A DNA stretch of 64,000 nucleotides, from NCBI GenBank assembly GCA_030167865.1, contig JALAGF010006287.1, positions 62,001 through 126,000 of the forward strand, written 5' to 3'. Position numbers and translations under genes: made by a program. The notes below the pieces were generated by a model, which was not told the DNA's origin, made no database searches, and saw nothing but the letters and a program-made list of their open reading frames with translations. The stretch comes from Craspedostauros australis (taxonomy: Eukaryota). Positions 4,642 to 64,000 of this stretch are shown piece by piece (within the stretch, counting starts at the first letter, position 1; every line of letters begins with the position of its first letter).

Positions 4642-6081
4642 AGTTTGTTGTTGCTCGTTTCTCGGTGATCAGGAGTTGCTTCTGTTTGTGGCTGTTGTGG
4701 TCAGGTTCGGGATGATTGTGGTTGTGCGGATGTGTGGTCTCGTGATGTCCTTGCAACGAAAATGCGCAGTCGATGCGCGTGTTTGTGTGGGCGGTACGAG
4801 AGGCGCAAGGGAGAGCCTCTCTGCCGCTTCTGTGGTGGGAAGATCCTTCGTCTTGTTGTACGCATCGTCATACACAACTCTGCTGACACCACAGGTATTG
4901 GTGGACAGCGTCACGCCTCCACTGCGCGAAGAGGCACCACAATCATGTTGTTCGCAGTGACGAGAACGGCGAAGAAATGCAAAGAGGGCAACGTTTGGAA
5001 CAACCATGTGACGTAATCGCAGCGGCGTTACCAACACGAGGAACCCGTACTTTGGGAACAACACCGACACAGGACGATGATTTGTCCAAAATCAGAACAC
5101 AGAGAGAACTTCAATCTTGACGCCTTCTTCCCGCACTTCGAGTTGTGAGGTGGTGGGAATCTTGAGGACACACGCTTCGCTCCTCCGATCGTTCCTCGCA
5201 TAATTAACTGTCGTGGTGCCATAAATGGGTCGTGTCGTGATGACTCATCGTCAGATTCGTTTCCGGGTTTGGGACATGCGAACGACGAATCAGCACAACC
5301 AAGTTGATGGCTTGTTGCTCTTTGGGTCTGTGTGCTTCGCGCACCACGACAGGCGCAGTCCTTCCCAACGCTCTCTCATGTCTTTCTCTCACAAAATCAG
5401 GAAACGGCAACCAACCTCCAGAGTTTGTCTCAGTGACGGTCGTACTTCTCATGTTCTTTCCGGGATGTCCAATCCACCACCAACAACCATGGCGCAATGA
5501 ATACGGCACATCTCCGGCTGCGTTTGATGGCAACTGAGCATGAGCAGAGTAGAATAGTAGCTCGTAGAGTCGTCGTAGAAACGATGGCTCCCTCCTCACA
5601 AGAGAGTGAGCGAGCGAAATAGAGAGGTTTTGCGGCATCTGCGCCTGCTGCTGGACATCAAACGAGGAGCCACGAGCGAGCCACGAGCCACCTCACGCAA
5701 CTGCAGTTTGGGCAGCACTGCTGATGTCGTCGAGGCGGAGACGCGACTCCCATTTCTTCGCTAACTTCGACGTCGTCACAAACTTCATGATGGCGATCTG
5801 CAACTATCTTTGCAAGCATACACGTAGAGCATTCACATCGTGTTCATTTTTGTGCGGGCTCGTGCTTTACAAGGAAGGAATGTTCTCGTACACAGCACAA
5901 CAGTCCATCGGATGCACTGGAATGGACTCTGGACTGGATTGGACTGAACATCGCAACAAAGCACGAGAAGCCTATTATAGATCGTACTTTTGCTATATCC
6001 GCTACGCTCGCTCTGCCACCTACATTCTAATCCTTGGCATTCACTGATTTCGCTGCATCGCGCAGTCGAGTTGCAGCTCCA

Positions 6082-8985: not shown

Positions 8986-9719
8986 GTTGAATGTAAGTAT
9001 AATTTATAATGTAATGCTCTATTATGATCCCTGCTTGCTTTGCTCTTCTTTTCTGCCGATTGATGACCGATGGGTTGGTTGATGAATGGATCGGCCGGTG
9101 GATCCGTTGATGGATCTGTGGAGTGGAAGTTCATTGGCTGTTAAGTCGCGGTGTTGCTGTGTTGATGGTGTTGTCGCGTCGATGTTGTTGATGGGTGGTG
9201 GTGGCTTCTCGTTCGGCAACGATCTTTCCCCAAAGAGGAAGAATTGGTTGGAGGTTCTTGAGAGGGACTAAAGAAGTTCAACCACGATTTCGATTGGATT
9301 CTGATTAGTCGTTTGAATCCAATGTGCAACACGACTGGTGATTCCCGCGGCCGATTTGGGTTTTTCCCAAGTTGCGTTTGTGACCATGGCGCACCCAATT
9401 GAACGGCACGAAACAGCAGCAACAAGGCGGAACCCCTCCACGATCCTGACCATGGCCGTGCACAGATGGCATTGAGCACATCGGGAGGACGATACTCCAC
9501 TGTCCCCTGCAATACGTTGCACCATACCATACCTCTCTACGTTGCACTGACATCAGGACGTACTCCGTGATAGCGATTGCGCAACATCGAACCCTCGTTG
9601 ATCGTGGCAGCATCGGTACGAATAGCACACGTTGACACGTTGTTCGGGTCATTTTACGAACCAAACGAAAAGGAAAGATTCCAATCGAAACGATCGAAAC
9701 CATCGAAACAACTGCAAAC

Positions 9720-12043
9720 ATGTCGACCGCGCAATCCGAGATCTCGCTGAAGTCTTCGCAGCTGAAGGCCGTGTACCGGATGCTCGCCTTCAACGAGGAG
9801 GCTGGGACGTACGAGAACGAGTTCTCCCTGCCACCGGCCGGATCATCGCACAACCAGTGGAAGATCCTGATCTACGATGCCGCCTGCCGTTCCATCATCA
9901 GCCCGCTGCTGTCTGTGTCGCAGCTCAGGCGCAGGGGCGTCACGCTGCATCTGCTGCTCAACAGCGACCGCGAGCCCATCCCGGACGTCCCGGCCGTGTA
10001 CTTCTGCAAGCCCACGAAGGAGAACCTCGCCATCATCGCGAAGGACTGCGCCAAGGGCTTGTACGGACGCACGCACGTCAACTTCGTCACCAAGCTCGAG
10101 CGCAACCTCATGGAGGAGTTTGCCAAGCTGGTGGTGCAGACGGGGTCGTTGGAGAGCGTGGCGGGTCTGCACGATCAGTACCTAGACTTTGTGTGCCTCG
10201 AGAAGCATCTCTTCAGTCTGCACAAGAAGAATTCATACGCCTTGTACAACGGATCCGGAGCCAACGAGCACCAGATCGAGTCAGCCATGACGGAAATTGC
10301 GTACGGCCTCTTCAGCGTCATCGCCACCATGGGAAAGGTGCCCTTCATTCGCTGTCCAAAGGTATGTCGGGCTCTGGCGTGGAGTCAAGCCATCCATCGA
10401 ATTGCATTGCGTTGCACTGCGCTGCACTGCCTTGCTGTGTACTGTTGTGCAATGCGAAAGGAGCCAAAGTTGAAGCATTGTCAGTCTTCTCAATGCTGTT
10501 GCCACATCTGGATGTGAAGGCATGGCACAGACTGCCGGTGTTGTGGGTGCCTACTTGCTTACTGGCTTACTGGCTTACTGGCTTATTACTAGTATTTTGT
10601 CAAGTCAAGCACTCACAGCTTTGTTTTGCATTCCACACCGCTTTTGCACTCACACACGCATACACGTGTACAATCCATATTCACGCCCATGCACTACGTT
10701 ATGCCATGCTACGAACACCGCAGGGCGGAGCTCCAGAGATGGTTGCGCGCAAGCTCAACCGCATGATCGCCGAGCATCCAACTCTCCTGCGCAACAAATC
10801 CAGTCTGCACAGACCGCTGCTAGTCATCTTGGACCGCAATGCCGATCTCATCACCCCCGTGCAGCACACCTCGACGTACCAGGCGCTCATCGACGACATG
10901 CTCACGCACAATGCCAACCGCGTGGAGTTCAACATCACGGACGAAACATCCAAACGACCAAAGACGATGCTGAAGAAGTTCGACCTCGACCCTGATGCGG
11001 ACCCATTCTACGCGCGCCACAAATTCCACCCCTTCCCAGAGGCCATCGAGAGCAACGGTGTTGACTTGCAGGACGTCACGGAGAAGGAGCAGTCCATCCG
11101 AAGCAAGGCGGCTGGCAACGCGGGTGCAAATCCTGATCCGATGGCATCGTCCGCGACTGATCTGGCCAACGCCGTTGATTCGTTGCCAGCGCTCTTGGAC
11201 AGAAAGAAGCAGCTTGAGGTCCACACCAGCATCCTGCAGGCCGTCATGAATCAGGTTGCGGCGCGTGATGTGCCACAGTTCTACGAACTCGAAACTTCCC
11301 TGGCGTCGGGATCTTACAAGAACAATGTGGCGGGAGCGAAGAAGGAGGTGCTGGGGCTTGCATCCGACCCGAGCAAGGGAAATGTCGCCGACAAGCTTCG
11401 GTTGGTCGTCGTGTACGTGCTGACCACGAACGCGAAGTCGGCCGACGTGGAGGAAGTGACGGCCGCTGTGCAAACTGCAATGGACACACCCACGGATGCT
11501 GGCAAGCCACGCATGGACAAGGCCGACAAGGAGATCCTGGCCACTGGGCTGAAGGCGATCGGATACCTGAAACAGCTGAGGGCGATGCACATGCTGCCCA
11601 TGTCATCGACGTTCCAGGAGATGGAATCATCGGGTGGCAAGGCCAGCTCTGACATCCTGTCGAGCTTCATGGCGAAGGCGACCACGCAGGCCACCGGTCT
11701 TCTGGCGAAGGCGACCGACAAGGTCACATCGATGCTGGGCAAAATCCACAAGCACTATGCCACACGCGTGGTGGAAAATCTCTGCGAGATGAAGCCTGGC
11801 ACCGAGGACGACGACTTCCTCTATCTCGATCCCAAGGTGCGAGGCGACGTGGACGTAGTGAAGCTCCGCATGATGCAGAGGTCGCCCGTGCGAGAAGTCA
11901 TTGCCTTCGTGATCGGTGGAGGATGCTATGCGGAGTACCAGAATCTTCAAATGGCGGCAAACGAACGACGAAGCGTCAGCTACGGAAGCACGGAGCTCGT
12001 TGATGCCGGCGAGTTCCTTGCGCAGTTGGGTGCCCTTGGTTAA
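9720..12043 (+). CDS. SLY1: Sec1/Munc18 family protein SLY1/SCFD1 (2 exons)
   Basis: Motifs WKILIYD, IISPLLSVSQLRRRGVTLHLLL..DREPIPDVPAVYF, RPLLVILDRN.DL, TYQALI, SLPAL..RK...EVH, IAFVIGGG.Y.EYQNL, YGSTEL. Exons 9720-10361 (donor GTATGT) and 10724-12043 (acceptor CAG), phase 0. Confidence 0.95.
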
Positions 12044-14296: not shown

Positions 14297-15224
14297 GTTG
14301 ACAGATGGAATCGGATGTTATTCTTCACAAATGAGATGGTCTTTGTTGCTGTTCTTGTTGTTCTTGTGACTGTTCGTGGAGTTGAATTGGATGCTCTCGG
14401 GAACGACGGATGGGTTGAGTTGATTGCGTGTTGTTGGTTTTGATGGTGCGTAGTCGTGTCTTGTCTCGTCAACATCGAGGTGCGTGACGACGTTTGTTTG
14501 TGGCGGGCATTTTCTCGCCTCTCGACAAGAACAGAAAACGTCACGCAACAGAACAAAACAGGGCGAGATTCGCGTCTTGGTTGAACTTGTTCGATCGCTT
14601 GAATCGATGCAGTCGATCGTTTTAATCCATCGAGTCAGAAACAGAATACAGACAATTTGAGTACCTTCGCTGTTTCCGGAAAGTGGCCACGTTGTGACGA
14701 ACAACAGCACTTTGATACCGTTTGCGCCCACGATCAACAAGGAACGCCGACTCGGAATCATGGAAGATCATGTTTGTTCCTCCACGCCCTCGTTGCGGTA
14801 GTGAAGGAGACAACTTCCCCCTTCTCGTCTTTCGTTGCGGTTGGAGACAAACAAGGAACAAGAACACCATGGCGGACACATTCGACGCTCACAACACCAA
14901 CACAGAGGAAGACTGCTCGCACCCTGACCTGCAATGCGAGCAAAGCATGGGAACGCCATACATACAACCTACTCGCAGAGCAACAAGAGACCAAACGCGA
15001 AGCAATCAATCCCAACATATCGTAGCACTCGAATTGGGACAAAGTGTAGCGGAGTGTGGAGAGGCTGGAAGCATCTGTTGCTGTTGAAGGTGGCATTCCC
15101 CTCTCGGTGAAGGGAGGGTGCGAGTATAGTAGAGTGTGGGATCAGACACAAGTTCGGGAGAGACATTGGCGGCAACAGCAACAGCAACAGCTGAGGAGCA
15201 GCACAGCATCAACAGACAAACAAG

Positions 15225-17168
15225 ATGACGAAGGAACACAGGTACTCGGAACCTCCCAGGAGAGGCGCCACCACGAACATGTTTGCGACTGATGACGGCT
15301 GCGACGACTGTGAGGACCAAAGTGACAGAACAAAGCAGCGACCAAATGGAAACGAAAGAGAAAGACAGGCCTCTGTATCCACATCAACGAGCAACCGTCG
15401 GAGAAATGGGAATGCCAACATGAACAGGCGCGCAAACGAGAGGAGCGCAAAGAAGCAGAGCGGTCGCAGCACGGGCACAAGATCACAAGCCAAACCATCT
15501 GCAGCCAAGGAACACATCGCTTCCTACATCCCACAATACCTGCGCCGTTACATCACACCTCATCATGGAGACTTCTGCTACTCCGGGATGTTCCATCATC
15601 GCCTGATTGCTCAGTGCATGGCGGAGGGATTCCTTCCGATCGCGACGGAAAAGCTCCTGCTTCCCAAGCTGCACCAGCAAAGGTGCGTCATCCCGCTGCC
15701 GAATGCGTTGCATGTTTCGAAGTCCGTACGCAAGAAGAGCAAGCGATTCGCCATAACCATCAACCAGGAGTTCGGTCGTGTCGTTGAGGGGTGCAGACAA
15801 CGCCATGGTGGCCATTGTTGGCTCTATCCTCCATTGGTGGAGGCCTATCAGACTATCTTGGAACAAGGCAGCATTGACGCCGTCGTTTTGGATGATTCCA
15901 GTCCGCCGGCAACAACGGAACAGCAGCAGCAGCAGCCACAACCGCAGTCACAACCGCAGTCACAGTCACCGTCACATTCGACGCTATCATCGACGTCAAC
16001 GTCAATTTCAGCATTGTCAGGAAACATCAACGCAAGCGTTACATCACAGCAACCTCAAGTTCAGTCCCCATCGAAGGCAACAACGCGAAAAAGCAGGCTG
16101 TTGGCACTTTGGGACAGCACAACGTCGTCGTCGTCGTCATCATCATCGTCATCATCTCGCCGACAAGCCAGCGCCAGTCAACGCAAGCAGGAAAGTGCGC
16201 CCAGGCATCGGTGTCAAGCGGTTTGCCCTGTCAGAATGTATTCAATTGAGGTTTGGGATGTTACCACCGGTGCATTGGCAGGTGGTGAGCTCGGCTACAG
16301 CGTTGGTTCCATCTACACCTCGCTCACGGGGTTTTCCTTCCAGGATAGCGCCGGTTCGGTGCAGCTGGCGGCATTGGGACGCATGCTGTGTCGCCACGGG
16401 TTCACGCTGTGGGACTTGGGGATGGAGATGGATTACAAAACTGGCCTGGGATCTATCCTCATGCCGCGCAAGGACTTTGTCCAACATGTCCACGATGTGA
16501 GATGCGCCAACAGTGATCGTGTTCTGCCGAACTACTCGACGCCGATGAGTGCGAAGGAGCTCATTGATCTTGATCTCATCCAAAGCACTGAGAATGGATC
16601 GCAACAACACCAAGCAGACACGAGTGCGCAGTCGCAATCGCAATCGCTACATCATGGACAGAACCCAGGCCAGAACATAAAAGGCGATCAACCCATGAGC
16701 AAGAATCAGCTGAAGAAATTGCGAAAGCTACAAATGAAGCAACAAAATAAGGAGAAAAAGCAACAGGAGCGGAATGGATCGGCGACAACCACTACCTGCA
16801 GCAATGTTGCTGGTTCTGGCCCCACTGTCAACAAATTGGAAAACATCATGGCGCAATTTGGAAACGGAGGCGCGGATCAGCACGAAGACATCTCCGTCCA
16901 AACATCAACCGACCTTTCATCACAAGTGACGCAGACGGCTTCTCCTTCATCCAGCGCACCTTCCGGTCAGAGATTGTCCTCATCGTCGAAGCACAAACAC
17001 GACGACTGCAGCCGTTCGTCGATCAATCATTCCGAAGAATTCGACGTGGGCGTCGCCGATCGGGACAGCGTCCACGAGAACAAGAAGATGCGAAATTCAG
17101 AAACGTCCCTGGTGTCGTCCATCATGACCGTCCGTCTCTCCTTGCAGGAAGACCAGTTTGTCGAGTAA
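15225..17168 (+). CDS. Leucyl/phenylalanyl-tRNA--protein transferase (Aat/ATEL1-like) homologue with low-complexity extensions
   Basis: Motifs LLPKLHQQRC, HVSKSVRK, INQEF..VVEGC, CWLYPPL, SIEVW, LAGGELGY.VG..YTSLTGF, AGSVQLAAL, LWDLGM.MDYK. Confidence 0.85.
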   Translation: MTKEHRYSEPPRRGATTNMFATDDGCDDCEDQSDRTKQRPNGNERERQASVSTSTSNRRRNGNANMNRRANERSAKKQSGRSTGTRSQAKPSAAKEHIASYIPQYLRRYITPHHGDFCYSGMFHHRLIAQCMAEGFLPIATEKLLLPKLHQQRCVIPLPNALHVSKSVRKKSKRFAITINQEFGRVVEGCRQRHGGHCWLYPPLVEAYQTILEQGSIDAVVLDDSSPPATTEQQQQQPQPQSQPQSQSPSHSTLSSTSTSISALSGNINASVTSQQPQVQSPSKATTRKSRLLALWDSTTSSSSSSSSSSSRRQASASQRKQESAPRHRCQAVCPVRMYSIEVWDVTTGALAGGELGYSVGSIYTSLTGFSFQDSAGSVQLAALGRMLCRHGFTLWDLGMEMDYKTGLGSILMPRKDFVQHVHDVRCANSDRVLPNYSTPMSAKELIDLDLIQSTENGSQQHQADTSAQSQSQSLHHGQNPGQNIKGDQPMSKNQLKKLRKLQMKQQNKEKKQQERNGSATTTTCSNVAGSGPTVNKLENIMAQFGNGGADQHEDISVQTSTDLSSQVTQTASPSSSAPSGQRLSSSSKHKHDDCSRSSINHSEEFDVGVADRDSVHENKKMRNSETSLVSSIMTVRLSLQEDQFVE

Positions 17169-39315: not shown

Positions 39316-40191
39316 TCACTGTGCGGAGCCCGCCTTGGCGATGTATGATAGCTTGGGGTACGACTCCTCCAGGTAGGCGTTGCCCTTCTTCTGGATCAGC
39401 GCCTGGTTGGGGCCGCGACCCTGCGGTGCGCCCTCTCCGTACCCAGCGTACAGCGTGTCGACGATGTCCATGCCCTCGATGACTTGACCGATGGGGGAGA
39501 AGCCCTGTCGGTCGAGGAAGGCGTTGCCTTGATCGCGCGTGTTGATGAAGATCTGGCTCGTGCGCGTGTTGGGGCCTGCGGTGGCAAAGACCACGGTTCC
39601 TCGTGCGTTGGTGACCTTGACCGGATCATCGGGAAGGCTGGCCGATCGCCACTTGGCTTGCACGTTGGGATCGCCGTTGATGCCGAACTGGGCGATGAAG
39701 CCTGGCAGGACGCGGAAGAATCGACATCCGTCCCAGAAGCCTTGATCCGTCAGATCGGTGAATCGCTGCACGCCGCGTGGTGCCCAGTCGGGTCGCATTT
39801 GGATCTTGACGCTTCCCGTCTTGCCGACTTCGCCATCCAGGTTGGCGATTTGGAACTCGATGATGCGGGCGCCCTCGATGCCTTCATCTGCTGCCAGCGT
39901 GGGTGACGCCAACGTCGTGGCGGCAGTGGCTCCGAACAAAACGCGTCTGACGCCACGGAAGAATTCGCGACGTCGCGATCCTCTTGCTGCCGACAGTGCT
40001 GTTGACGATGTTGACGAAGACGTCGATGTTGAGGATGATGATGGTTTCTGCGTGATCTGGATTGACCTTATTCTCGTTGCTGATGTGCTGGTGGCTGTGA
40101 ATGCAGTTGCGCTGTGCGATGCGAGGGTGATGAATGCCACGCACAGCAGGCATGCAGCGATGAAGCGGTTCGATCGGGATGCAGAGGTCAT
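39316..40191 (-). CDS. Cyclophilin-type peptidyl-prolyl isomerase, probably thylakoid lumen
   Basis: Motifs [63 protein letters not shown]. Presequence: signal, ATAF, Ser/Thr-rich transit, RR motif, hydrophobic stretch. Confidence 0.95.
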
Positions 40192-41545
40192 GTTGATTGA
40201 GCGGGCTGTTGTAGTATTCAGTGTGATGGCTGCGGGTTGTGCTTGGTTTCTGTTTCGAATGCGGGTGGAGTGGAGTGGAGCGGAGCAGAGCAAGAATAGT
40301 ACGTCGTGTGTGCGTGAAAGAACAACAAGATTCGGGATGAGATTGTGAGTGCGGAGGATGCGTGCTAATACTCGACGAGAAACGTGTGTTCGTTGGCAGT
40401 AGATCTCAGCACGACAGATCGTCCCAACGTTCCTCTTTTTCTCAACTGCATCTTCCTCCCTGCCGGATGCGACCTCAGAAGATCCGGCGCATCATCGACA
40501 CCATCGGTGGTTGCAGTGACACCTCGTTCGGATGGAACAAAAGTGGCCATTGGACGAGTACTTTGCGGCAGAGTATGGCATTGGCACACGCTTCTGACAC
40601 CAGATTTCGTGTGACACAGTTCTGATTCTTCGCATTCTCGAAGCGAGGAAGAGACAGAGAAAGATGTGTGGCTCAGCAACATCCGTCAGCTTCTGTGGCT
40701 GACACCATTCCGAAGATTCACTCACCTCCTCTCGTTGATGCGGTCTGCTCATTTGTGTGCGTTGTGGCCATTTTGTTGGCAGCGCGGCTGTGTGTCATTC
40801 GTTCGCGAAACAGTTCATCACAATCACTCGCGCAGAAGCTCGAATCGCCGTCTCTGCGTCAGCGTGATCGCCGCTTGGCGTGTTGCTTTGTGATGTCTGT
40901 TCAAATGGCGATCATTGTTTTCTGGCGATGTTCGCTGGATGGGACAAGATGATTGGCTGAGATCCAGCGGGGCCATACCATTTTCTGTCGCAAATCCGGG
41001 ACGTATCGACCCATACGACCAAACAATGAGAAATACCAGCATGCACGACTTGGATTCATCACGAGATAGAGGTTATATTGACGTTAACTATATTCTTATT
41101 GTGATATTTGTTTCTCCGAAGTTCTCTTTGCTACTGCGATGACGGTGTTGTCTGTCTTCTCTCGCGGTTGTGCCTGGCTGCGTCCAAGCTCTGCTTGTTT
41201 CGGTCGGAAAGTCGCATGTGTTGGAGGCCACGAAGGAAAGCAAGAACAGGAACAGCGCAGATGTGTTGGAAGCAACTGCAGAAACACACACAAACCAAAA
41301 GGGAAGGTGGCAGAAAGGGACAGAAGCTGAGAGAAAAGCGGAACCGATTGATTCGTTGCGACGGACACCACTCCTATACTCTGGAGAGAGAGAGTCAACG
41401 GCAAAAGGTTGTTGAGAACCGAAAATTGGAGAAAGGAGCTGCTCTGCTGAACGCAGTATTGTCGGAGCGCTCCACGAGTGTACGTACGGTCACGGCAGAG
41501 AGTGGAGAGTCGAGAGTGCAAAGCGTGGGGCAGTCGAAGCAGTTG

Positions 41546-48209: not shown

Positions 48210-50349
48210 ATGATAGTGCGTCTCATCTTTCTTGTGGCTTCGTTTGTCGAAGTCTTCGGTGGGAATGCGTCAGCGCTGGCGCCACTCGCGCTTTCGTTAA
48301 TACCTTTCGCCAGTGCGCTGGGCATCACGAAGCCAGGGAAAGGCTCTGCGTGGAACACAAAGCTCACTCGCACATCGGCAGCCAGCAGTGTCGATGCACC
48401 AAACCATCCCCATTCCTTCCCAAGTTCGCACGTGCATCCGCATCCGCACTTCCAGCCTGGCACAGTTCAAGACCCCCCTCAAGAAGGCAAACAGACCAGC
48501 CGTCGTCAATGGCTATCGCTGTGTTCAAAAGTGGCGACGGTTGCATCGCTCGGTGTTACTTCGAAGCCTGTTGCATCGAATGCCGAAGTTGGCGATGAGG
48601 GCAAACTAGCGCCGCGTCTGTCAGGGGAGTGGTACGACAACATTCCCGTCACAGGCACAGCGGAAGGCCTGAGCCGATCATTCTTCCCGTCCCTGACCCC
48701 TCCATTCCAGAACCGAGCCACTTTTCGATACGAGGTACGCCGCGATGATTGTCGTACTGCGGCGCAATGTTCCACAGCTGAACCTATGTACTATACTCTA
48801 TGCAAGTTCTTGGCTTGGGCGCCGGCTTCAAGTCTTGGCGAATTGTACTGACGACGGTGTACCGACGTGCATCTGCGCCTGTCTCTGTCTGTGTCGGCAG
48901 ATTCTGGGTCACACTATTTGTTGACTTTGACCAACGACCGAAAGAACGAATGGAACAAAGACATGAATGAGGGAATCAACGAAAGAATGGATCACCCTTG
49001 TTCTTTGCCCACAGACTGCGAGGATGAGACAAGAGAATCAACCCAAGGCCACACATCATGCCCCCAGGCAATGCCGACGCCGCCACCTTGCCAGCAACTG
49101 TCGCCTCGTTCCTCAATTCTCCCCCCTCATCTTGTTCTTCTGATTCTTGCTGGCTCTCCCTGGAACAAGTATTGCTCTCCTCTTAATCCACTCTACTTTG
49201 TCGTTATCCACGGATCAGCTTGGTCGGAACGCTTGGGCATTCGAGCAACTCCTGACATTCGCCAACGTAACAGCAACCATTCGAACGAATGTGATTCGGC
49301 TGGAGTCCACCGGAGGTCTTTGGGTTCATTCGCCGCTGTATCCCACTTCTGAATTCTGCAGCCTCTTGGAAGAAATCGGGAACGTCGAACACATCGTGCT
49401 GCCATGCAACGCCTTCGAGCACAAGGCACCGCTTGCTGCATTCTGCAGACGCTACCCGCGAGCATCTGTCTGGATTGCTCCTGGGCAGTACCAGCCACTT
49501 GGCCAGTGTGGAACGACGCTCTCCGCAGCAAATGGCAACCAACGATGTCGAATGGGAGCGAGAATTGACGGGATCTTTCCAACCCGTGATCGTGACGCAC
49601 ATCAGCCTCAATCAAAACCGCTGTCATCGCCACAGCAAACGGTCGATCCTCTGATTCCTCGCCCACCGTGGGCGGACGAATTCGAATACACCACCCTGTA
49701 CGTCAACTTGCCAGAGAATGCGGGTCCTGTGTCTGAGGTGGCATTTCTCCACAAACCGACCAAAACTTTAATCGCGACTGATGCTGTGGCATACATTCCC
49801 AAGACTCTGACCAAACAAGCTCCCATCTTTCGAACCTACTTCAAAGAGGAAGAGGTGCAAGAGCCGACGTTCTGGGCAAGGACGGTCCTGCAGAGTGTCT
49901 TCCTGCCATTGAGGGCAGCCGATGAAGGCGCACAGCAAACTATTCGAGGAGGAGCAACCTCCAACAACGAGAACGGCGAGGTGTCGCAGTATCCAGGTTT
50001 TGATGCCATTCAAGAGAGGTTGCTGCGAGCACCGATCTTGCGCGGGTTCAACGACGCAAGGGCACCAGAGGAAGCCAGGGCCTTTGTTGACGAAATTTCG
50101 AGATGGGACTTTGACCGTATCATCACAAGCCACTTTGCATCGCCGATCATGGCGCAGCCGAATGATGTCCGAAAGGCCTTCGCATATCTGTACAGCAACA
50201 GCCCATCTACTGACAGTGTGGACACGTCGTTCTTGCCGCCGATCACATGTCGTGACTGGGAACTGCTGGACAATCTCAACGCGATCATTGCGGATTACAA
50301 GATTGGGGCTCCGGCGACATTCGACTATCGAAGTGGGTGCATCCAATAA
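48210..50349 (+). CDS. DUF4336-family protein (metallo-beta-lactamase-like fold), plastid-targeted (2 exons)
   Basis: Motifs WAFEQ, GGLWVHSP, HIVLP..AFEHK, VWIAPGQY, PPWADEF, EVAFLHKPTKTLIATDA, WDFDRIITSHF. Exons 48210-48734 (donor GTACGC) and 49219-50349 (acceptor CAG), phase 0. Confidence 0.88.
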
Positions 50350-55100: not shown

Positions 55101-56522
55101 ATGATGATGGAAACCATGGACCCGCCGCCACTACAGTGCGTCACACCAAACTCAAGTCCTGCCTCTGGCTCCCACAAGATAGTAGACAAAGATGCAACAG
55201 ACAACAACAACACCGATGCCAACACCAACGACACCAGCAACAGCAACATCGTCAGCAGCAAATGCGATACGGGCGATGGCACCAAGTCCAAGAGGACCGC
55301 ATTTCCCATGATCTTGCATCAGATGCTCGACGATGCCAATGCGCAAGACTTCGCCTCAATCGTTTCGTGGTACCCACTGAGGGGGTCGACGTTCTTTCGC
55401 GTGCACAATCAGAAGGTGTTCGTGAACGACATCTTGCCACGGTACTTCTCGCACAACAAGTACAAGAGCTTCCAACGACAGCTCAATCTGTGGGGATTCG
55501 AACGAGTCACGCAGGGCAAGAGCAAGGGGGCGTACGGTCATCGCTTCTTCGTCCAGGGTGAGCCAGACCTATGCAAGAAGATGTCCCGAAGGAAGTTTGG
55601 ATCTTCTTCGCCCAATGCCAACCCGACGACGCCGTCTTGCAGCTCCGCCTCAATCTGCGTCAACCCAACCTCTGCATCCAGAACTGAGCTGGATGATTCG
55701 ATGACCTCCAACGACTCTCGAAGATCGTCGGTCATGGACTACGCTCTTCCGACGATGTCCAACAGACGCGGAGAGCTGGAGAAAATGTCGCTCAGTGAGG
55801 ATCTGCCATCATTCGTGGACAAACGGAGGATGTCGCCCAACGCATCCACCGAGGTTCTCGGACGCCTTTCGCGGTCCTCCGGGGCGACGAATCAGACTCA
55901 CGCTGACCCTGCCAACGCGACCCTCCAGTCGCAGTGGGATCAACTCTCTCTTCAACAGCCACCCACAGGAGGTTTGTCATTCGCCGGCGGCTATCCTCAA
56001 CAGCAGGCAGAACCGTGCATGTCCGCACCAAGCGTGGCATTGCGACCAGCGACAGCATCTCCCCAAATGCAGCCCCAAGGACAAGCACAACAGCATCCCA
56101 TGATGAGTGGAGTTGGTGCAAGGAATGGTCAACGCCTCGTTGACTATGGTTGGGTAAGATCGTCAGCATCGCCATCGCCATCGCCATCAATGTCGATGGC
56201 GATGGCAACTGCAACGCACGCATCTACACCATCCATGCCATTCAGAAGCGTTGCACAGCATCCACCGCAATCGAAGCTAAGGCCTCAATTTACACACATA
56301 AACACTGCCATTGCCAAGGCTCACGAAAAAGGCGGCGAACTGGTGCCCTTCGAAGGGAAGCAGTTCTACTTCGTGGATGGTGCGCTGGCAAGCAGCTCCG
56401 AGCATAGCACTGGGTCTTTCCTTGGCGCTGTCGCCGCCTTGGATTCAAATCTGTTGCCATCGCACTTTCCAGCAGCAAAGAACGGCGATCAGCAATCAAG
56501 TCATAGCAATATGCCGCTCTAA
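55101..56522 (+). CDS. Heat-shock transcription factor (HSF-type DNA-binding domain)
   Basis: Motifs FPMILHQML, IVSW, F.VH....F...ILPRYF.HNKYKSFQRQLNLWGFERV, Y.H..F..G.PDLC..M.R. Late FEGKQFYFV motif. Confidence 0.95.
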   Translation: MMMETMDPPPLQCVTPNSSPASGSHKIVDKDATDNNNTDANTNDTSNSNIVSSKCDTGDGTKSKRTAFPMILHQMLDDANAQDFASIVSWYPLRGSTFFRVHNQKVFVNDILPRYFSHNKYKSFQRQLNLWGFERVTQGKSKGAYGHRFFVQGEPDLCKKMSRRKFGSSSPNANPTTPSCSSASICVNPTSASRTELDDSMTSNDSRRSSVMDYALPTMSNRRGELEKMSLSEDLPSFVDKRRMSPNASTEVLGRLSRSSGATNQTHADPANATLQSQWDQLSLQQPPTGGLSFAGGYPQQQAEPCMSAPSVALRPATASPQMQPQGQAQQHPMMSGVGARNGQRLVDYGWVRSSASPSPSPSMSMAMATATHASTPSMPFRSVAQHPPQSKLRPQFTHINTAIAKAHEKGGELVPFEGKQFYFVDGALASSSEHSTGSFLGAVAALDSNLLPSHFPAAKNGDQQSSHSNMPL

Positions 56523-59500
56523 AGGGTCTACCCTCATCAAATGATGCTTGGAGTGCATGGTATAGTATACAACAATACTTGGCAATGCTCTTCAATGATA
56601 CGAAGCTCAACGAAGAAAGTCGTCGCAACGATCGTGACCATGGGGGCGAGGGGCAGGCATACATGGTTTGCTTGCTTGTACATCATAATTCGAGTCAGAG
56701 GCGTCGTGGTCACTGCAACACAGACAATGGCACTGGCCATCGCATCGGAGCTAGCAAGCTAGTCTACACTGTCTGTCATGTCTTCCACTGGCGGACGCAG
56801 AACACCATCCGGATCTCTCAGCTCGTCGTACCTTGTCAGTCAACTAGCCTGCGGACTTGACGACCATCGACTTACGAGTATGTATGGTGCAGAGCTTCTC
56901 CGCAGCATAGCTAACGGATCATCATCGGCGACCTTGCATCATGCTATCACTAATATACTATTCTAGTATTATATAATACATACAACATGAAAGTTTGAAC
57001 AAGCACTTGTGCGAGTCAATATCAGCAGAGATCACGGTGCAGTCACGTGCGTGGTGTTCGGTGGAATGCTGGTTCTTATCTGGCGCACAAACATACGATG
57101 GGGCACAGAGACTAGAATGGTGACCGGCCCTTCCGTCATCAACAACCATAGCAAGAGCGTCGCAACACCAACAGCAAGAGCAGCAGCAGTAGTAGTAGTA
57201 GCAGCAGCAGCAGCAGCAGCAGCAACGACCCCAAAGATCTGTTCATATGATATGTCTGGAGCTACTCTACAGAATCAGTTTTTCATGTCGTATCTGTGAA
57301 AACACAAAGACCGATGTTGCGATAGGCTCCGTCATCTTCTGGCTCCCCGTGCTTTGCACAATCATCCCTGCTCCGCCGAAAGGACCAGCTTTGCTATGGT
57401 CGTCTCCCGGTTGAGGTGCGCCAGGAGCGAGATGTAGTTGCAGACTCAATGTCTTATCAGGAGTTCCCAGACCAGGAGGAACTTGCCTTCGCCAGGTACG
57501 CACAGCACAGAACAAGCGTCAGAGGGATGACAAACATAGAGTGCGACTACTTGTACTACTGCGAGCGCCACACACACCAGCATCATGGCTGACATTTCGT
57601 CTTTCATGCATCACATTCCGCGCTGCGATTCCGCTTCAACACATTCAGACGCACTGCTTTTTGGCGCGTGAACACCAATACCTCAATCCTCGCTCTTCAA
57701 CCACGGACACTGTTTTTGCTGATCGGTTCGTACCGAACATAGATTGGATTCTCGTCCCTTCCTGTCGCCACCACTCAGTGCGTGACTCTTGGCTGTTTGT
57801 GAGTGCACCTCATCGTTCTGCCAACCGACAGGATGCGGTTAATCGTCAAACCCGGCGCGAATGCTGCGGAGTTCGTTGGCGGTCGTGCAACCTTTGCTGT
57901 GCCCGATACCCAGCCATTCTTCGGAACTGGGCACGCGAGTCCAAATGAACATGCCTTTTGACGCAGATCTGGACCAAGGGCATGTTCCCGTGCCCGCCCA
58001 CATCTTGTGCCTCGTACTGTATTGGTGGCGAGCGGTGCATTTCTTGTGAGCAGACGCAAACAGTCACCGAGAGATGGCGGCCCCACATGCCCGGATGTCC
58101 TCCCTCTCCGATCGGGAGCAGTAGATAGCCGCGAAGGCGGGCATTACTATGTATGTATGAATGAATGACCAACGACTAACCTTCCCATCGCTGTTTTCAA
58201 TTATTCCAGCATAGAATATTAGTCTATTCTCTACGGAGTTTTCTACTCAATTGCATATTATTCGTGAATGCACGAATATAACTGCGAGTATTGGTAGACA
58301 GAGTGGAAGTATGATAGGAGTATGCAGGAGCACCAACCGATCTCCGGCGGCCGAAGCATCTGTTGCTCCTTCATATTCTAAAATAGTATATTCACACGAA
58401 CAGAAGAGTAAACCGAACCAGCATCTCACACAGGATCACCGAGGAGCAAAAAGGAAACGCAAACAATGCAAGACAATGCAAACAATTGGATGGTGTGCGC
58501 TGCGAAAACACCAGCAGTGTCTGTGGGAATTGTTGTCATCGTTGTCATTGTCATCACCACCGTCATCGTCATTGTGATGTGCCCCCAGACAAGATTGAAC
58601 CTTCCGAGAGGTTATCTTTGATGTTGAAATTGGGACATTGTTGGTGTCATTCGTGATTCGGACAAGATAGCGACGACATTGTTGTGGGACTTCGTTGGTC
58701 GTCAAGTCGCGAACAATTCCGAACCTTCTGGGTTGAGCATCTTCGTCAGATCGCGTCAGATCGTGTCAGAGTCCCCTGGCTGCCACGCTGGTCATGGATT
58801 TGGGTAAAGTTCTCTGGCTTGGTGCTTCTTATCCTGCCGATGCCAAAGTCCATGTCCATGTCCATGTCCATGTTCGCAGGTTCATCTGTGTATCCTGACT
58901 CTTGCCCCAAGGACGCATGAGTATGACTGATAAATGTGAGCAAATATGCAACCAGTTGGAGTAGTGCGTCCCATTTCGGGTGCCTTGGCGGAGTTATTGA
59001 TCAGGTAGTGGACACGGACTCGGCAAGATCACCACAATCCTCAGTGACATTCGTGTGTTCTGCCTTTGATCCTTGAAGCGGACAGAAAGCTGTGATGACC
59101 AAAGCGTTCGACAAACAACAATTCAAAACGGACATGTACTGTGTCAAGAACAGCACTTGCAGACCCATCCTGTCCTTCTGCACCACCCTCATTCGAACTA
59201 GAACATCGGCCAAGACCAGATAGATGTTCGGAAGTGTCTCCCACACAATCCTACTTGTACGAAGCAAGAGAGAGAGAGAGAGAGACAAGCACTGTTCACA
59301 TCGAGGAATTGGAGACATGACAATGAAGAACATGACGACGATCCTGTGGTGAAGCGAGGAGAGCGTAGCGGGCAGCAAGTGTATTGGAGGACACGCCACT
59401 GTGGTTCCGATGAAATGAACAAGGAAGGAATAGATCGCAAGCATTGAGCTTGGGGACACTCATCACGACGCGTGGACGTCGTCGAAAACAGTTGGGGCGC

Positions 59501-59931
59501 TCTCGCGTTTCGTTTGTCTCTGTCTCATTCCTTTGTTTCTGACAAATGCGAACATTGCATTCGCTGGATCGTGCGCCTCCTGGATCTTCCTCGCACCACC
59601 CTTGGCTACGAAGGCCTAACGAAGCATTTCTGCGGAACGTGTTGGAGACACGCAGACACAAAACGGGGCATTGTGTCAGGAGCCATGCGTCACATTTATC
59701 GGAAGTGGTTGGAGGGGACTGAAAGGAGACCTCTGGGCAGCAGGTTTCTGGATGGGCGAGGTGAGGATGTCGCTGCGAGGAAGGCACAGGATCACCGATG
59801 ATTGGGAACAAAGTGCAGGCGCAAAACAGAATCCCTCTTCTGTCGCCATCCGACCCATGAAGCTGTCGTTTCCAAGTCGTGCAATACGAAGAGCATCATC
59901 GCCAACACATCGACCCATCATCGACATCATC

Positions 59932-60122
59932 TGTCAATAAGACGAGTAGTGTGTGAATCAATGTTGTTCGCTAATATTATGAGATATTACATTGTTGAGC
60001 TGAGAAGTTGCGGTCTTGGCTCCTGCTAGTGTCTTGATCTGCTCTGGGAGGAAAGTGGGCGCGAGGTGCGCACTTTGCGTACGGTGGTCAGTCGGGTCAC
60101 GTGCGGGACTGGAATCAATACA
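59932..60122 (-). repeat. Putative 3' LTR (about 191 bp, TGT...ACA) preceded by a polypurine tract
   Basis: On the minus strand GCGAGGG is followed directly by TGTATTGATT (60122). A candidate end TTATTGACA lies at 59932. The second LTR is not in the window, so the distal boundary is inferred. Confidence 0.6.
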
Positions 60123-63100
60123 CCCTCGCGTAACTCCCAACATGCTCTGTCTTGCTGATTTGCCGCTGTCAGGGGTAGGCTTGAGGTACACTTCTCTCAT
60201 TTTTCTGTGGTGGGCCGTCGGATGATGCTTCGTGAAGTAGTCGGCGAGATTGTCTGCTCCGGGGGCCCAGTAGACAATGAATTGTCCTTGCTGGATCCGG
60301 TCGCGCACCCAGTAGAAGCGCATGTCCATTGCTCGGGTGCGTCGCTGCTTCATGGTGTTGTTGACGATGCCGGATGCGGTGGAATTGTCCGTTTTGATTG
60401 GCGTGGGTGGTTGGGCGTGGCCCAGCTCGTTGAGGGTGGTGCGTAGCGCTGACGCTGCTGTGCAGTTCAGGTACAGCGCGCCGACCTCGGCCTCGGCTGC
60501 CGAGCTCATGACGTTCTGAATTTTGTTGCATACTGTGTGTATGGCTCCGTTGTTAGGAGGTGGTTGGATGGGCGCCTTGTTGTTGTCGGGCGAGCTGTTG
60601 CTGAGGTACATGTGCCCGCCTGCGCGACTTCTGGCCTTCGGTAGGCTCAGGTACGATGCGTCGCTGTCGACATGCAGTATCATGTCGCTGGCGTGGTAGA
60701 CGATGGTCGCGCTGGGATGGGTGGCGCAGTAGTCGAGTAGTTGCATGACTCGGTTTGCCGTGTTGTGCGTGGCATGCGCCTGCTGGGTGGCGATGTCGCT
60801 GACTGCTGGAAGGATGGTGGGGTCGACGGCTCTTGCGTAGTATAGTAGGGTCCCTACTATCTGTCGAATGCGGATGATCTCTTCTGCGGGCAGTTCCGGT
60901 GCGGTGTCCTCCAGTTTGGGTTCTTGTGTTCTTGCGCCGTAGACTGGCGCTTCGCACGGGGCTGGCGCGTGTTGTGGTTTGGTGGGGATCGGATGTTGGA
61001 ATTTGTGAAGCGCCTTTTTCACGTACCCTGGCATGGACAGTTCCACTGTTTGTGCGTCGTAGTCCCATTTGAGACTGACGCCGCAGTAGAGATCGCCGTC
61101 CCACTCGATGGTGCACTTGTATATCGTTTGAAGCGCTCCGATGAGGTGCTGCGCGTGTTCTTTGCCCACATATTTGACGCCAAAGTCGTCTACCACGAGA
61201 GTGAATGTGATGGGCCTGCAGTCGTGCTTCCACAATCCTGGAGTGTGTGGGACTGGCCTGTAACCGAACTTCGCGAGGTGTTTTTGGAGCTTCACATTTG
61301 CGATTTTGCCCGCTTGTGGCAGCCCGTACATGCCCTTTCGCACTTCGACGTAGACGTTGCCGTTGTGTTCTAAGTTCTGGAGCTTGTATTGCTCAACGAC
61401 TTCCGGTGGTATCATTGCCATCGGCATTCGCATGTATTCGTATCTGTCCATTTCGGTGTTCAGATAAAAATCTTTGATGTCGATGGTCATGAATCTTGCA
61501 TTCGGTGTGGAGATGACGCTGTTGAACAAACACTTCGCAGTGGTGAGTTCTGCGGTGGGTGTGTGCACGTCGAATGGGTAATCGATGAGATTACCTCCCA
61601 CGGTGAGGCGCGTGCGATGTGTTTCCGCTTTTTGTGGTCGTACGGCGCAGACGATGCGGCCGTATGTGACGGTGCGATCTCGTGGTACGGCCGATCGTGG
61701 GACGAAGAAGATGGTGTTGGTTGCCGCCGATGCTGGGATGCGGGTTCCGATGCCTTGTGCGAGACGTCCGATTTCGTTCGCGAAGGATGTGTACCATTGT
61801 TGCGGGGTATGTCCGTGTACCTTGCCAGCGATGAGGTGTCGGTATTCGTATGCCGTGCCCGTGCGTTCGTCGATGACTGCGTTTGCGGTGGTGGCTCCGC
61901 GCGCCCATTGCTTGCGTTGGATGGTGCCGGTTCGTAGTCGTGTGCGTGGCGCCGTTGTGGCATGGCCTGTGGGAGGTGCTCCTGTGTTGGCGTTGTCGTC
62001 GTCGTCGTCGTCGTCGTCGTCGTCCGATTCTGGTTCGGAGTCGGCTTCGTCGTCTGTGACCTGCGGTGTGATTTGGGGCACCCTCGGAGGTGTGCGCGCC
62101 GGCGTCGTGGAGGTGACGCGTTTGTTGTTGGTGCGGCTGCTTGCGGTGGTGAGCACCCTCGGAGGTGGCTCGGTGTGCACCCTCGGAAGTGGCGCTGCGG
62201 GTGTCTCGGGGAGCGCCTGCTGGAAGATGTCGCTGAGCTGCTGGAGTGCTCCGAGCTGCTCGTCGCCGATCGACTGGAGTGGTGCGCACGGCTTGGTGAG
62301 TGCTGTGGCGAGGTCACCTGCTGCTTTGATGGCCATCTCTGCGTTGGTCGGCGTGGGCATGGCGCACTTGCTTGGCATCAGTTCGATGGTGTCGGTGATT
62401 CGGACCTTCCTTGTCTTGTTGCAGTACACCTTGTAGCACCGGTAGTGTTCGAGTGCTGGTGCTACGTACCATCCGGCGGATCCGTGTGGTGCCCATGTGG
62501 CTCGTTTGCTGGGCTTGTCATGGATGACTGCCTTTGTCCCTGGTGGTGCCATTGGCGTTGCATTGAAGTCGAAGTTGCCGTGGAGGGCATGATGTGCCGA
62601 GATGTGCGGGTTGACTCGCGACGGTCGCATCAGGTTGAGTGTGATGTCGCATTGGGGGAGGAGTTGACACCACAGATGGAGTGGAAATGCCTCGTCGGCC
62701 GTGGCTAGTCCTGCGATGAAGTGGTCTTTCCAAGTGGAGATGGCTCTCTCTGCTGCGTTGCGTCGGTGAATGCCTGGCGGCACAAGCTGGTATTGGATAC
62801 CTTTGGATTCGATGAGGTGCTTGAGTTCTTTCGGCGCCTCGTTGTCGAGTCGGTGAAATCGCGGTGTCATTCCGCTTCGAAGGAGAACCGTCAAAAGTTC
62901 GTCACACGCTCGCGTGAGCTCCGTTGCGTGCCGACTGCGCATCGGTCGCGAAAGAATTGCGTTGGAGTCGTGATCGTACAACACCATGATGTACTGGTAT
63001 CCGCGGCTTGACGTCACAGGGAAGCGCCCAGTTTGATCGGTGAAGATTTTACCCGTTGGCCGATAAACGTCCATGAAGATTTCGCGTTGTTCCGTGGGAT

Positions 63101-63803
63101 TCTTGGTGGATTGGGTGACGTGGTTACAGTGCTTGCGCGTGGACTGCGTGTTTTGGTACTGTTGTCGGAGGTGCCCAGCGGCGGTAGCGGTGGAAGGTGG
63201 AAGGAATTTTCGCACCAATTGTTCGGTCAGTCCGGGCCACGACGAAAAGAATCCTTTCTTGATGGCTGCTGTGAACGTGGATACCGCGGGGCTGAAGCAG
63301 CACTGGTGGTAATATTTGGCCAGTTCCATCTTGGTTGACGTGTGATGGACGTGATTGGCCATTTTTGGCGATGTGGGCTTCGGCGGTTGGATGTCGATGC
63401 GATACATGCCGTCAACTTGATGCCGACAACCGGTGTGAATCGTGTTTCCGTTTTTTCGAATTCTCACGGATTCTTGGTCGAAGTCAACCGTCATGCCGTG
63501 GTCACACAGTTGCCCCACAGACACAAGCGCCGCGCTGGAAAGTTGTGGAAAAACTCGTGCGGTGCACGCGTGCTGCGGTACATTGGCAATGCTGACCGTG
63601 GCTCGGTGGGAAGATTGGATGTTGGATCCGTCGGGCAACGACACCGACAACGGGTTATCGTCGGGTGTTTGGCCAGTGCAAGGATCTTCAGGTCGCAGGA
63701 AATGACTAGTGCAACCAGAGTCAACTATGGCGAGGGCAGGAGCACAGGATGGTGAAGTAGTAACAGAGAGTGCTACTTGCTTACTGTGGCCCTGCCGTGC
63801 TTG
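59958..63803 (-). CDS. pol: Pol polyprotein frame (PR-IN-RT-RH) with no ATG upstream of the protease
   Basis: PR: AIVDSGCTSHFL (DSG at 63722-63714). IN: TDQTG, LDNE, NAAERAI. RT: IDIKDFYL, GMYGLPQAG, LVVDDFG. RH: DSDASY, SSAAEAE, TDN, NLADYFTKHH. Confidence 0.95.
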   Translation of the reverse strand, partial: QARQGHSKQVALSVTTSPSCAPALAIVDSGCTSHFLRPEDPCTGQTPDDNPLSVSLPDGSNIQSSHRATVSIANVPQHACTARVFPQLSSAALVSVGQLCDHGMTVDFDQESVRIRKNGNTIHTGCRHQVDGMYRIDIQPPKPTSPKMANHVHHTSTKMELAKYYHQCCFSPAVSTFTAAIKKGFFSSWPGLTEQLVRKFLPPSTATAAGHLRQQYQNTQSTRKHCNHVTQSTKNPTEQREIFMDVYRPTGKIFTDQTGRFPVTSSRGYQYIMVLYDHDSNAILSRPMRSRHATELTRACDELLTVLLRSGMTPRFHRLDNEAPKELKHLIESKGIQYQLVPPGIHRRNAAERAISTWKDHFIAGLATADEAFPLHLWCQLLPQCDITLNLMRPSRVNPHISAHHALHGNFDFNATPMAPPGTKAVIHDKPSKRATWAPHGSAGWYVAPALEHYRCYKVYCNKTRKVRITDTIELMPSKCAMPTPTNAEMAIKAAGDLATALTKPCAPLQSIGDEQLGALQQLSDIFQQALPETPAAPLPRVHTEPPPRVLTTASSRTNNKRVTSTTPARTPPRVPQITPQVTDDEADSEPESDDDDDDDDDDNANTGAPPTGHATTAPRTRLRTGTIQRKQWARGATTANAVIDERTGTAYEYRHLIAGKVHGHTPQQWYTSFANEIGRLAQGIGTRIPASAATNTIFFVPRSAVPRDRTVTYGRIVCAVRPQKAETHRTRLTVGGNLIDYPFDVHTPTAELTTAKCLFNSVISTPNARFMTIDIKDFYLNTEMDRYEYMRMPMAMIPPEVVEQYKLQNLEHNGNVYVEVRKGMYGLPQAGKIANVKLQKHLAKFGYRPVPHTPGLWKHDCRPITFTLVVDDFGVKYVGKEHAQHLIGALQTIYKCTIEWDGDLYCGVSLKWDYDAQTVELSMPGYVKKALHKFQHPIPTKPQHAPAPCEAPVYGARTQEPKLEDTAPELPAEEIIRIRQIVGTLLYYARAVDPTILPAVSDIATQQAHATHNTANRVMQLLDYCATHPSATIVYHASDMILHVDSDASYLSLPKARSRAGGHMYLSNSSPDNNKAPIQPPPNNGAIHTVCNKIQNVMSSAAEAEVGALYLNCTAASALRTTLNELGHAQPPTPIKTDNSTASGIVNNTMKQRRTRAMDMRFYWVRDRIQQGQFIVYWAPGADNLADYFTKHHPTAHHRKMREVYLKPTPDSGKSARQSMLGVTRGCIDSSPARDPTDHRTQSAHLAPTFLPEQIKTLAGAKTATSQLNNVISHNISEQH

Positions 63804-63998
63804 TCATGCGTTTGCCGGGGCGCCTTCGGTGGATCCTCCCATCGTGTTGCTGCGAGTGGCCTCCTTCTTGTGCCCTGGCGCTGGGTTCATGCACGTCGCG
63901 CTGGTGTGCGTGATGCCCACCTTGTACCCGTGTGTCCAGCAGTAGGAGTCGTGCTTGTGCTTGCGTCCTCCCTTCTTGCCTCCAGTGCCGCTGCTCGT
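63804..63998 (-). CDS. gag: 3' end of Gag (Cys/His nucleocapsid-like motif), partial
   Basis: ...YCWTHGYKVGITHTSATCMNPAPGHKKEATRSNTMGGSTEGAPANA*, with the stop TGA at 63806-63804. Confidence 0.88.
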   Translation of the reverse strand, partial: TSSGTGGKKGGRKHKHDSYCWTHGYKVGITHTSATCMNPAPGHKKEATRSNTMGGSTEGAPANA

Positions 63999-64000
63999 GG

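Follow-up and report, generated by a model that had tools for sequence, protein, structure and literature searches.

How does a retrotransposon produce Pol when its gag gene ends with a stop codon and pol follows in the same frame? This question is raised by a locus on the minus strand of a 64,000-nt stretch of DNA from Craspedostauros australis (GenBank assembly GCA_030167865.1, contig JALAGF010006287.1, positions 62,001 to 126,000). The whole stretch is called the window here and is numbered from its first letter. The locus carries a long terminal repeat (LTR) retrotransposon of the Copia type, in which gag is closed by UGA at 63806-63804 and pol continues directly behind it. The first-pass annotation of the window proposed that Gag-Pol is made at this site by structure-stimulated readthrough. 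This proposal was supported by the comparison with relatives: 64 of 64 loci have one in-frame stop at the junction, a nucleotide motif follows the stop, and a covarying stem begins 5-8 nt downstream. It is therefore probable, judging from these conserved features, that the UGA serves as a programmed leaky terminator of gag, with the stop context and a long-range stem as the signal.

The gag/pol junction in the window

The window holds a single copy of the element, which is incomplete in gag owing to the window end. Translation of the minus strand showed that the right end of the window falls inside the gene, so that the C-terminal 64 codons are visible (63807 to 64000). The visible tail carries the GGS motif common to the relatives and a knuckle-like motif, CWTHGYKVGITHTSATC, at 63941-63891. 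It ends with ...TMGGSTEGAPANA, the last residues being GGSTEGAPANA, and is followed by TGA. A Pfam search with this 64-residue tail gave no match. The context of the stop is GCA-UGA-CAA-GCA-CGG, exactly as first annotated, and all coordinates given earlier for the junction proved to be correct. The frame behind the stop had been estimated at about 1280 codons. By translation, it consists of 1281 codons and a terminal TGA at 59960-59958 (the whole pol frame spans 59958 to 63803, minus strand), and it encodes a protease (PR), an integrase-like region (IN), a reverse transcriptase (RT) and an RNase H (RH). No stop other than the one at the junction interrupts the 1345 visible codons of this copy; UGA is otherwise absent from them, but it also ends pol.

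The protease active-site codons GAC TCT GGT (D-S-G) are located at 63714 to 63722 on the minus strand and represent residues 28-30 past the stop. It was confirmed that no in-frame ATG is present between the stop and the protease Asp of the window copy. A 7-nt spacer, CAAGCAC (63797 to 63803), separates the stop from the 5′ arm of a predicted stem, GGCAGGGCCACAG (63784 to 63796). Counted from the first nucleotide after the stop, the first GG of this arm occupies +8 and +9, which fits the family-wide G-rich positions +7 to +9 described below. The 3′ arm, CUGUGCUCCUGCC (63735 to 63747), ends 13 nt ahead of the protease DSG codons, and a 36-nt loop (63748 to 63783) lies between the arms. The two arms form 12 pairs over 13 positions, with one G-U pair and one C.C mismatch, in agreement with the pairing that had been noticed before. 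This stem is the outer helix of the minimum-energy structure computed by RNAfold (−24.4 kcal/mol). An inner helix, AGUAGCA/UGUUACU, had been suggested as well. It can pair on paper, but the minimum-energy fold prefers another inner hairpin, AAGUAG/CUACUU. All RNA structure predictions in this work (ViennaRNA, RNAalifold) refer to nested structures only.

The affiliation of the element was determined from its RT and from the order of its pol domains. The RT is of the Copia type, and the domains are arranged as PR, IN, RT and RH; the element is thus a Copia-type LTR retrotransposon (Ty1/Copia, Pseudoviridae-type). The RVT_2 domain (PF07727) was detected on pol residues 730-936 with 31.3 bits, slightly below the cut-off of 31.6 bits, and relatives of this pol bear PF07727. 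In the Pfam search of pol no integrase match was obtained, and alignment with relatives suggests that the integrase region is placed between PR and RT. The sequence ADYFTK near the pol C-terminus corresponds to the ADxxTK motif at the end of RNase H (PMC5445492; published work is cited throughout from excerpts of the papers, under their PMC numbers). In the protein atlas, the clusters nearest to pol are RVT_2 'hypothetical proteins', for which taxa are not recorded.

The stop codon at the end of pol is followed by T, not C, and a second in-frame TGA is found 8 codons on (59934-59960, minus strand). The end of pol is therefore a tandem-stop, non-leaky context, unlike the gag stop.

Conservation of the in-frame stop

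When the N-terminal 320 residues of pol were used as the query of a protein search, 45 relatives were obtained; these share at most 52% identity with it over the query region and 65% over the whole protein. Most of them are about 1200 amino acids long and have their N-terminus shortly ahead of the protease motif. An alignment of 22 of these proteins was then used to retrieve 79 metagenome loci with a pol alignment. In 48 of these loci, the gag knuckle C.[ST]HG...H...C and the protease motif D[ST]G were found within 600 nt of each other, and in every one of the 48 gag and protease are co-framed with exactly one stop between them. Among the remaining 31 loci, tblastn allowed 16 to be evaluated, and each of these showed one frame and one stop; 13 loci had no junction, and in the partial loci L051 and L053 the stop was also present after the gag tail. 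In total, 64 of 64 evaluable loci, at 37-59% pol identity, have a single stop in a single frame, and neither fused frames nor frameshifts were observed. The flanking frames of the relatives are long (gag about 400-450 codons, pol up to about 1370 codons). The junctions, including that of the window, were grouped at an ungapped identity of at least 55% over 130 nt, which gave 58 lineages. The stop is TGA in 49 of them and TAG in nine, and TAA does not occur. A long continuation in the same frame and retention of the stop among diverged relatives, both of which characterize a readthrough signal, are thus found here.

These results bear directly on the explanation that the window copy is a single-ORF (open reading frame) Copia element with a one-off nonsense mutation, and that its stem is a chance complementarity. 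Many Copia lineages, for example GalEa, do have one large ORF (PMC5445492). Moreover, two of the 45 protein relatives, P0002 and P0005, have Cys at the position aligned with the stop and a frame that is continuous through the junction, and a Cys codon is one base from TGA; these two are known as protein only, and their DNA is not among the loci. The weak single-sequence fold of the window junction (z = −1.1) would also suit such an explanation. The 64 loci contradict it, as do the lack of a further stop in the window copy and the conserved GGG motif and covarying stem that follow the stop. A one-off mutation is hardly credible, because distant relatives keep the same stop and stem-loop layout, and it was rejected. 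The comparison with sibling or related copies, suggested in the first-pass annotation as a check for a sense codon at this site, was made with the related metagenome loci, and every one of the 64 keeps the stop.

The same loci argue against splicing. In Drosophila copia, splicing sets the Gag:Pol ratio (PMC2194720), and a splice that removes the stop would likewise allow Gag-Pol to be made from a spliced RNA. However, both flanks of the stop are in frame and free of further stops in 64 of 64 loci, which an intron would not keep, and the conserved positions directly behind the stop keep a fixed register to it. On these two grounds, splicing was rejected and is considered very unlikely.

A further explanation is that UGA is a sense codon here, either for selenocysteine or through reassignment in the host code. 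A UGA with a nearby stem resembles some selenocysteine contexts (PMC3159437), and in one protein relative, P0011, a W occupies the site at which its DNA relative L003 (82% identical) has TGA. The W is most simply explained by a gene caller that used a table with TGA=W. On the other hand, nine of the 58 lineages have TAG instead, and TGA is absent elsewhere from the visible codons of the window copy, ends its pol, and recurs 8 codons on. The other genes in the window are open for 470-973 codons in the standard code. A search of positions 59000-64000 against Rfam revealed no selenocysteine insertion sequence (SECIS) or other family at E ≤ 1; the 3′ untranslated region past the element was not specifically searched. 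Selenocysteine recoding, which would call for UGA only and a SECIS, does not agree with the TAG lineages and the Rfam result, and a variant genetic code was rejected in view of the TAG lineages, the TGA that ends pol, and the long standard-code frames in the window. A sense UGA in either form is extremely improbable.

Some additional observations were made during the survey of the loci. Among viral contigs, 30 pattern matches were obtained, none of which is a relative. The 6145-nt contig L079 contains the junction twice, at 432-503 and 5838-5909, that is 5406 nt apart, which is either a tandem or circular form as assembled or an assembly wrap-around. In L051 (5707-6400), the gag tail and a TAG are directly followed by integrase-like sequence with no recognisable protease motif, and the locus looks like a protease-deleted derivative.

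Nucleotide motif after the stop

The nucleotides downstream of the stop were compared in the 58 lineages. A C stands at +1 in 35 of them, the context being TGA-C in 35, and in eight of the nine TAG cases it is TAG-G. A G is found at +7 in 42, at +8 in 47, and at +9 in 48 of the 58 lineages. Position +9 is a third codon position, and at the third positions +15, +18, +21, +24, +27 and +30 a G occurs in just 4-11 of 58. The third codon after the stop is GGG in 34 lineages, CGG in six, GGA in four and TGG in one, with others in the rest; in the window it is CGG. Several amino acids thus share the same GG at this codon, a sign that selection acts here at the RNA level and not on the encoded protein.

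Stem conservation and covariation

The stop with the following 87 nt was folded for 49 junctions, which gave a mean z of −1.29, with 39% of the values below −2. In 105-nt minimum-energy folds, we scored a long-range helix when it had at least 6 bp, a span of at least 40 nt and a start 4-9 nt past the stop. Such a helix was present at 23 of 58 junctions vs. 101 of 994 in-frame control windows from the same loci (Fisher p = 1.7e-8). The duplex of the 5′ arm (+5 to +22) with its own downstream region had a mean energy of −15.8 kcal/mol, compared with −12.4 kcal/mol for GGG-anchored controls (Mann-Whitney p = 1e-8). When the downstream regions were swapped between lineages, cognate combinations reached −16.1 kcal/mol vs. 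−12.8 kcal/mol for non-cognate ones. The cognate duplex was in the top 5% in 16 of 58 lineages (binomial p = 1.6e-8; 16/43 in a version with 43 junctions) and in the top 10% in 23 of 58. With the arms swapped and the 3′ regions fixed, 8 of 58 were in the top 5%. In most lineages, the stem starts at +5 to +8; it has 8-16 pairs and a loop of 14-135 nt, and neither the sequence nor the length of the loop region is conserved among the relatives.

Covariation was examined in subgroups. A 16-sequence MAFFT alignment, together with trials of eight and seven sequences, was used for picking seeds only. In a plain MAFFT alignment of six loci, RNAalifold predicted a 10-bp stem formed by columns 10-19 with 71-82. 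The covariance model R1, built from six seeds, gave 13 further matches in 12 non-seed loci (L079 was matched twice). Each of the matches that were compared with a mapped stop was found to start exactly at the gag stop. In the R1-fitted alignment of 18 distinct rows, 89.6% of the cells are paired vs. 73.0% in shuffles (0 of 500 as high), and double changes occur in eight of ten pairs (3 of 500 shuffles), a count that is biased by the fitting of the alignment to the model. Pairing fell to 26-56% when the partner was shifted by 1-3 columns.

A second subgroup of eight loci, one of them with TAG, was aligned by MAFFT only. RNAalifold predicted an 11-bp stem with seven compensatory pairs, and 90.9% of the cells are paired vs. 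75.6% in shuffles (0 of 500), with a decrease to 44-55% upon sliding. Taken together, the predicted stem covaries in two subgroups and is lineage-specific. The second subgroup (alignment A8; L033, L044, L035, L037, L069, L064, L040 and L047) has loops of about 65-85 nt. Its arms, GGGRAGCC and GGUCCYCCC, encode the conserved peptides G-E-P and G-P-P, and therefore coding and pairing both constrain the same bases. In contig L015, a match of the second covariance model lies right at the contig start (8-76), just upstream of the protease; this contig probably begins a few bases ahead of a gag stop.

The stem of the window copy and its subgroup

Four relatives, L018, L028, L031 and L032, share the GGCAG arm motif of the window and are 37-41% identical to it over the first 300 pol residues. 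In each of the four, the 5′ strand of the best duplex runs from +8 (or +7) to +20, matching the window. Among these sequences, the pairs are G-C, A-U and G-U at +12; G-C and A-U at +13; C-G and U-A at +16; A-U and C-G at +17; and C-G, G-C and U-A at +18. The duplexes were determined for each sequence separately and anchored at the stop, so pairing as such is true by construction, the pairs being each sequence's own best duplex. The informative point is that homologous 5′ positions vary and their partners follow.

The weight of the window stem as a single sequence was estimated in several ways. The duplex of the two arms has an energy of −21.0 kcal/mol, which was equalled at 33 of 3812 other anchors in the same element (0.9%), or at 11 of 1270 when in-frame anchors only were considered. 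Two of 34 GGG-anchored controls matched or exceeded it. When tested against all non-cognate regions in the swap analysis, the window duplex ranked best of the 58. Its excess over chance, taken as a single sequence, is moderate.

Several results weigh against the proposed signal. Folding of the junction by RNAfold, the check put forward in the first-pass annotation, recovered the outer helix as stated above, but the fold itself is unexceptional: for the 93-nt junction, z = −1.10, and 22 of 200 dinucleotide shuffles were equally or more stable. Taken alone, the window stem is weak evidence. No match was found at the window junction by R1, which was run over 59900-64000 with filters off, or by the covariance model R2 (19 matches) with default filters. 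Both models were built from other subgroups, and in other loci their matches coincided exactly with the stops. RNAalifold on MAFFT alignments that included the window gave just five invariant, uninformative pairs, because MAFFT misaligned the 3′ arms, the loop of the window being shorter. In 35 of 58 lineages, the cognate duplex falls outside the top 10%, and a specific stem is therefore not demonstrable in every lineage. To these must be added the Cys residues in P0002 and P0005 and the closest Copia precedent, Tca2 of Candida albicans, whose junction alone gave no readthrough in Saccharomyces cerevisiae reporters (PMC2194720). The case for the significance of the stem comes from the relatives, not from the window sequence alone.

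Proposed mechanism

According to the proposed mechanism, most ribosomes would terminate at the UGA and release Gag, and a minority, perhaps a few percent, would decode it by means of a near-cognate tRNA, stay in frame and so produce Gag-Pol. The leaky UGA would thereby set the Gag:Pol ratio. The putative signal has two components: a stop context of UGA with C behind it, and a long-range stem-loop with a G-rich 5′ arm that starts 7 nt past the stop (63796-63784 with 63747-63735). At this distance, the stem would be placed at the mRNA entrance of the ribosome when the stop is in the A site, and could there stimulate the bypass.

Another possibility is that the stop is conserved but Pol is obtained without readthrough, from a separate RNA that is internally initiated or promoted, by reinitiation or by some other non-canonical bypass, and that the stem serves in packaging, dimerisation or RNA stability. 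The Tca2 junction has a minor promoter and showed no local readthrough in S. cerevisiae, and non-canonical bypass was concluded for that element (PMC2194720). Among our lineages, 16 of 47 do have an ATG in frame after the stop and ahead of the protease Asp. It is missing in the other 31, the window copy included, and downstream initiation would not require that the frame be open from the first codon after the stop, as it is in 64 of 64 loci. In addition, gag and pol are always co-framed, and the C at +1, the GGG at +7 to +9 and the stem keep a constant position with respect to the stop, which is the geometry of readthrough stimulators (PMC3159437). Pol synthesis without readthrough is therefore considered unlikely. 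Programmed readthrough is the most economical reading of the data, and its rivals are weaker.

Comparison with known systems

In-frame stops are a known strategy for Gag-Pol in retroviruses and retrotransposons (PMC10085805; PMC2194720). In alphaviruses and several genera of plant viruses, readthrough is enhanced by UGA-C combined with a stem 7-9 nt further on (Firth et al. 2011, PMC3159437). In our analysis, the design of the putative signal is closest to the Type II cassettes as redefined by Firth et al. These comprise the alphavirus nsP3/nsP4 UGA-C and the UGA-CGG of tobra-, furo-, peclu- and pomoviruses, with an extended 3′ stem-loop. They consist of UGA-C(GG/UA), a spacer of 7-9 nt (12 nt in Sindbis and Aura virus), a stem of 10-14 bp and a long loop; the G at +9 is retained although the encoded amino acids vary, and the stem shows compensatory changes (PMC3159437). 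The family studied here shares with them the UGA-C, a stem shortly after the stop, a long and poorly conserved loop, the G at +9 and the compensatory changes. A favourable context together with a covarying 3′ stem about 8 nt downstream, by which Type II is defined, is thus found in the family, with the window stem alone only moderately unusual. The systems differ in that ours is a gag/pol junction of a DNA-integrated LTR retrotransposon, whereas the Type II cassettes extend an RNA virus replicase or coat protein. Positions +1 to +3 are CAA, CAG, CAT or CGA here, not CGG or CUA, and the spacer of our putative signal is slightly shorter (5-8 nt).

The closest precedent among Copia elements is Tca2 (pCal), a Ty1/Copia element with gag-UGA-pol in one frame and a predicted pseudoknot (Forbes et al. 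2007, PMC2194720). Both systems are of the Copia type, have gag and pol co-framed across UGA, and have an RNA structure predicted a few nt downstream. In Tca2, however, the spacer is purine-rich and 8 nt long and the structure is a compact pseudoknot, in contrast to the long-range stem-loop beginning with GGG described here. Tca2 was also assayed in yeast, whereas our family is characterized by conservation over dozens of lineages, as read from DNA. The gag-pol junction of murine leukaemia virus (MuLV) belongs to Type III, with UAG-G, an 8-nt spacer and a compact H-type pseudoknot (PMC3159437; PMC2194720). It resembles our family in its in-frame gag/pol stop and a G-rich structure about 8 nt downstream, and eight of the nine TAG lineages continue with G. 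It differs in its H-type pseudoknot, the window copy having UGA-C and a structure predicted as nested only.

In-frame gag-TGA-pol is also found in Tj1, Tcry1 and Tosmo1-3, Ty3/Gypsy elements of fission yeasts, and the stop is reported to be essential for transposition of Tj1 (PMC10085805). They resemble our family in being LTR retrotransposons whose gag and pol are split by an in-frame TGA, with the C behind it conserved. They belong, however, to the Gypsy superfamily, and their signal is the 8-nt GAA-TGA-CT, with no downstream stem described in the excerpts of that paper. The CoDi-like Copia elements of diatoms have ORF1 upstream of a polyprotein ORF2 (Maumus et al. 2009, PMC2806351) and share the Copia order of pol domains, but no readthrough signal, motif or structure is described in the main text of that report as excerpted. 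No mention of readthrough was found in the excerpts of Llorens et al. 2009, Donnart et al. 2017 and the 2021 re-examination of diatom genomes. The signal was undescribed in full-text literature searches, the coverage of which did not include Gao et al. 2003 and the supplement of Maumus et al. 2009; both may bear on priority.

The comparison supports the view that the feature is a further case of the known readthrough of a gag-pol stop with a 3′ RNA structure. It would be distinguished by family-wide conservation and by a design otherwise described for RNA viruses. There is an even chance that a large and deeply diverged Copia family, sampled mostly from marine and aquatic metagenomes, has kept a Type II cassette (stop, C at +1, G at +7 to +9, long-range stem) throughout its history, in which case it would be the first retrotransposon family with this design. 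Its natural variants, more than 50 in number, would then form a covariation series for studying the way in which eukaryotic ribosomes are led by a downstream stem to misread a stop.

Significance for retroelements and recoding

Retroelements need much more Gag than Pol, and the Gag/Pol balance in Copia elements outside yeast and plants is poorly documented. Here, a whole family appears to solve this problem with one in-frame stop and a conserved RNA signal. As judged from the contig names of the metagenome relatives, the family is probably abundant in marine protists. There are consequences for annotation: gene callers split such elements in two or misread the stop, as exemplified by the W at TGA in one database protein, and intact copies with the stop should not be counted as dead. 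For studies of recoding, it is of use that dozens of stem variants occur naturally in this family and that their distance from the stop is fixed. The C at +1 and the G at +9 parallel RNA-virus signals, so that a general rule of eukaryotic termination may become testable.

Other features of the element and the window

A purine run, AGAAGAGGGA, is present at about 59826-59838 on the minus strand and is followed by TG a few bases later; these are candidates for the polypurine tract and the beginning of the 3′ LTR. The 5′ LTR falls outside the window, past position 64000. The linker between integrase and RT is rich in Pro and Thr and contains a run of about nine Asp residues (DDDDDDDDD) at pol residues of about 610-625 (about 61900-62000, minus strand), which accounts for a weak, spurious Pfam match to PBP1_TM.

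A scan of the window for tRNA genes found none. Positions 1-57000 contain host genes in long, apparently intron-poor frames, and the window includes 185 N. On the minus strand, these genes encode a 6PF2K protein (2264-3694), a carbamoyltransferase (6082-9003) and a cyclophilin (39316-40491). The plus strand encodes Sec1 (9626-12043), a Leu/Phe-tRNA protein transferase (15195-17168), a DUF4336 protein (49144-50349) and an HSF-type DNA-binding protein (55101-56522). With this gene content, the window looks like part of a compact, intron-poor eukaryotic genome.

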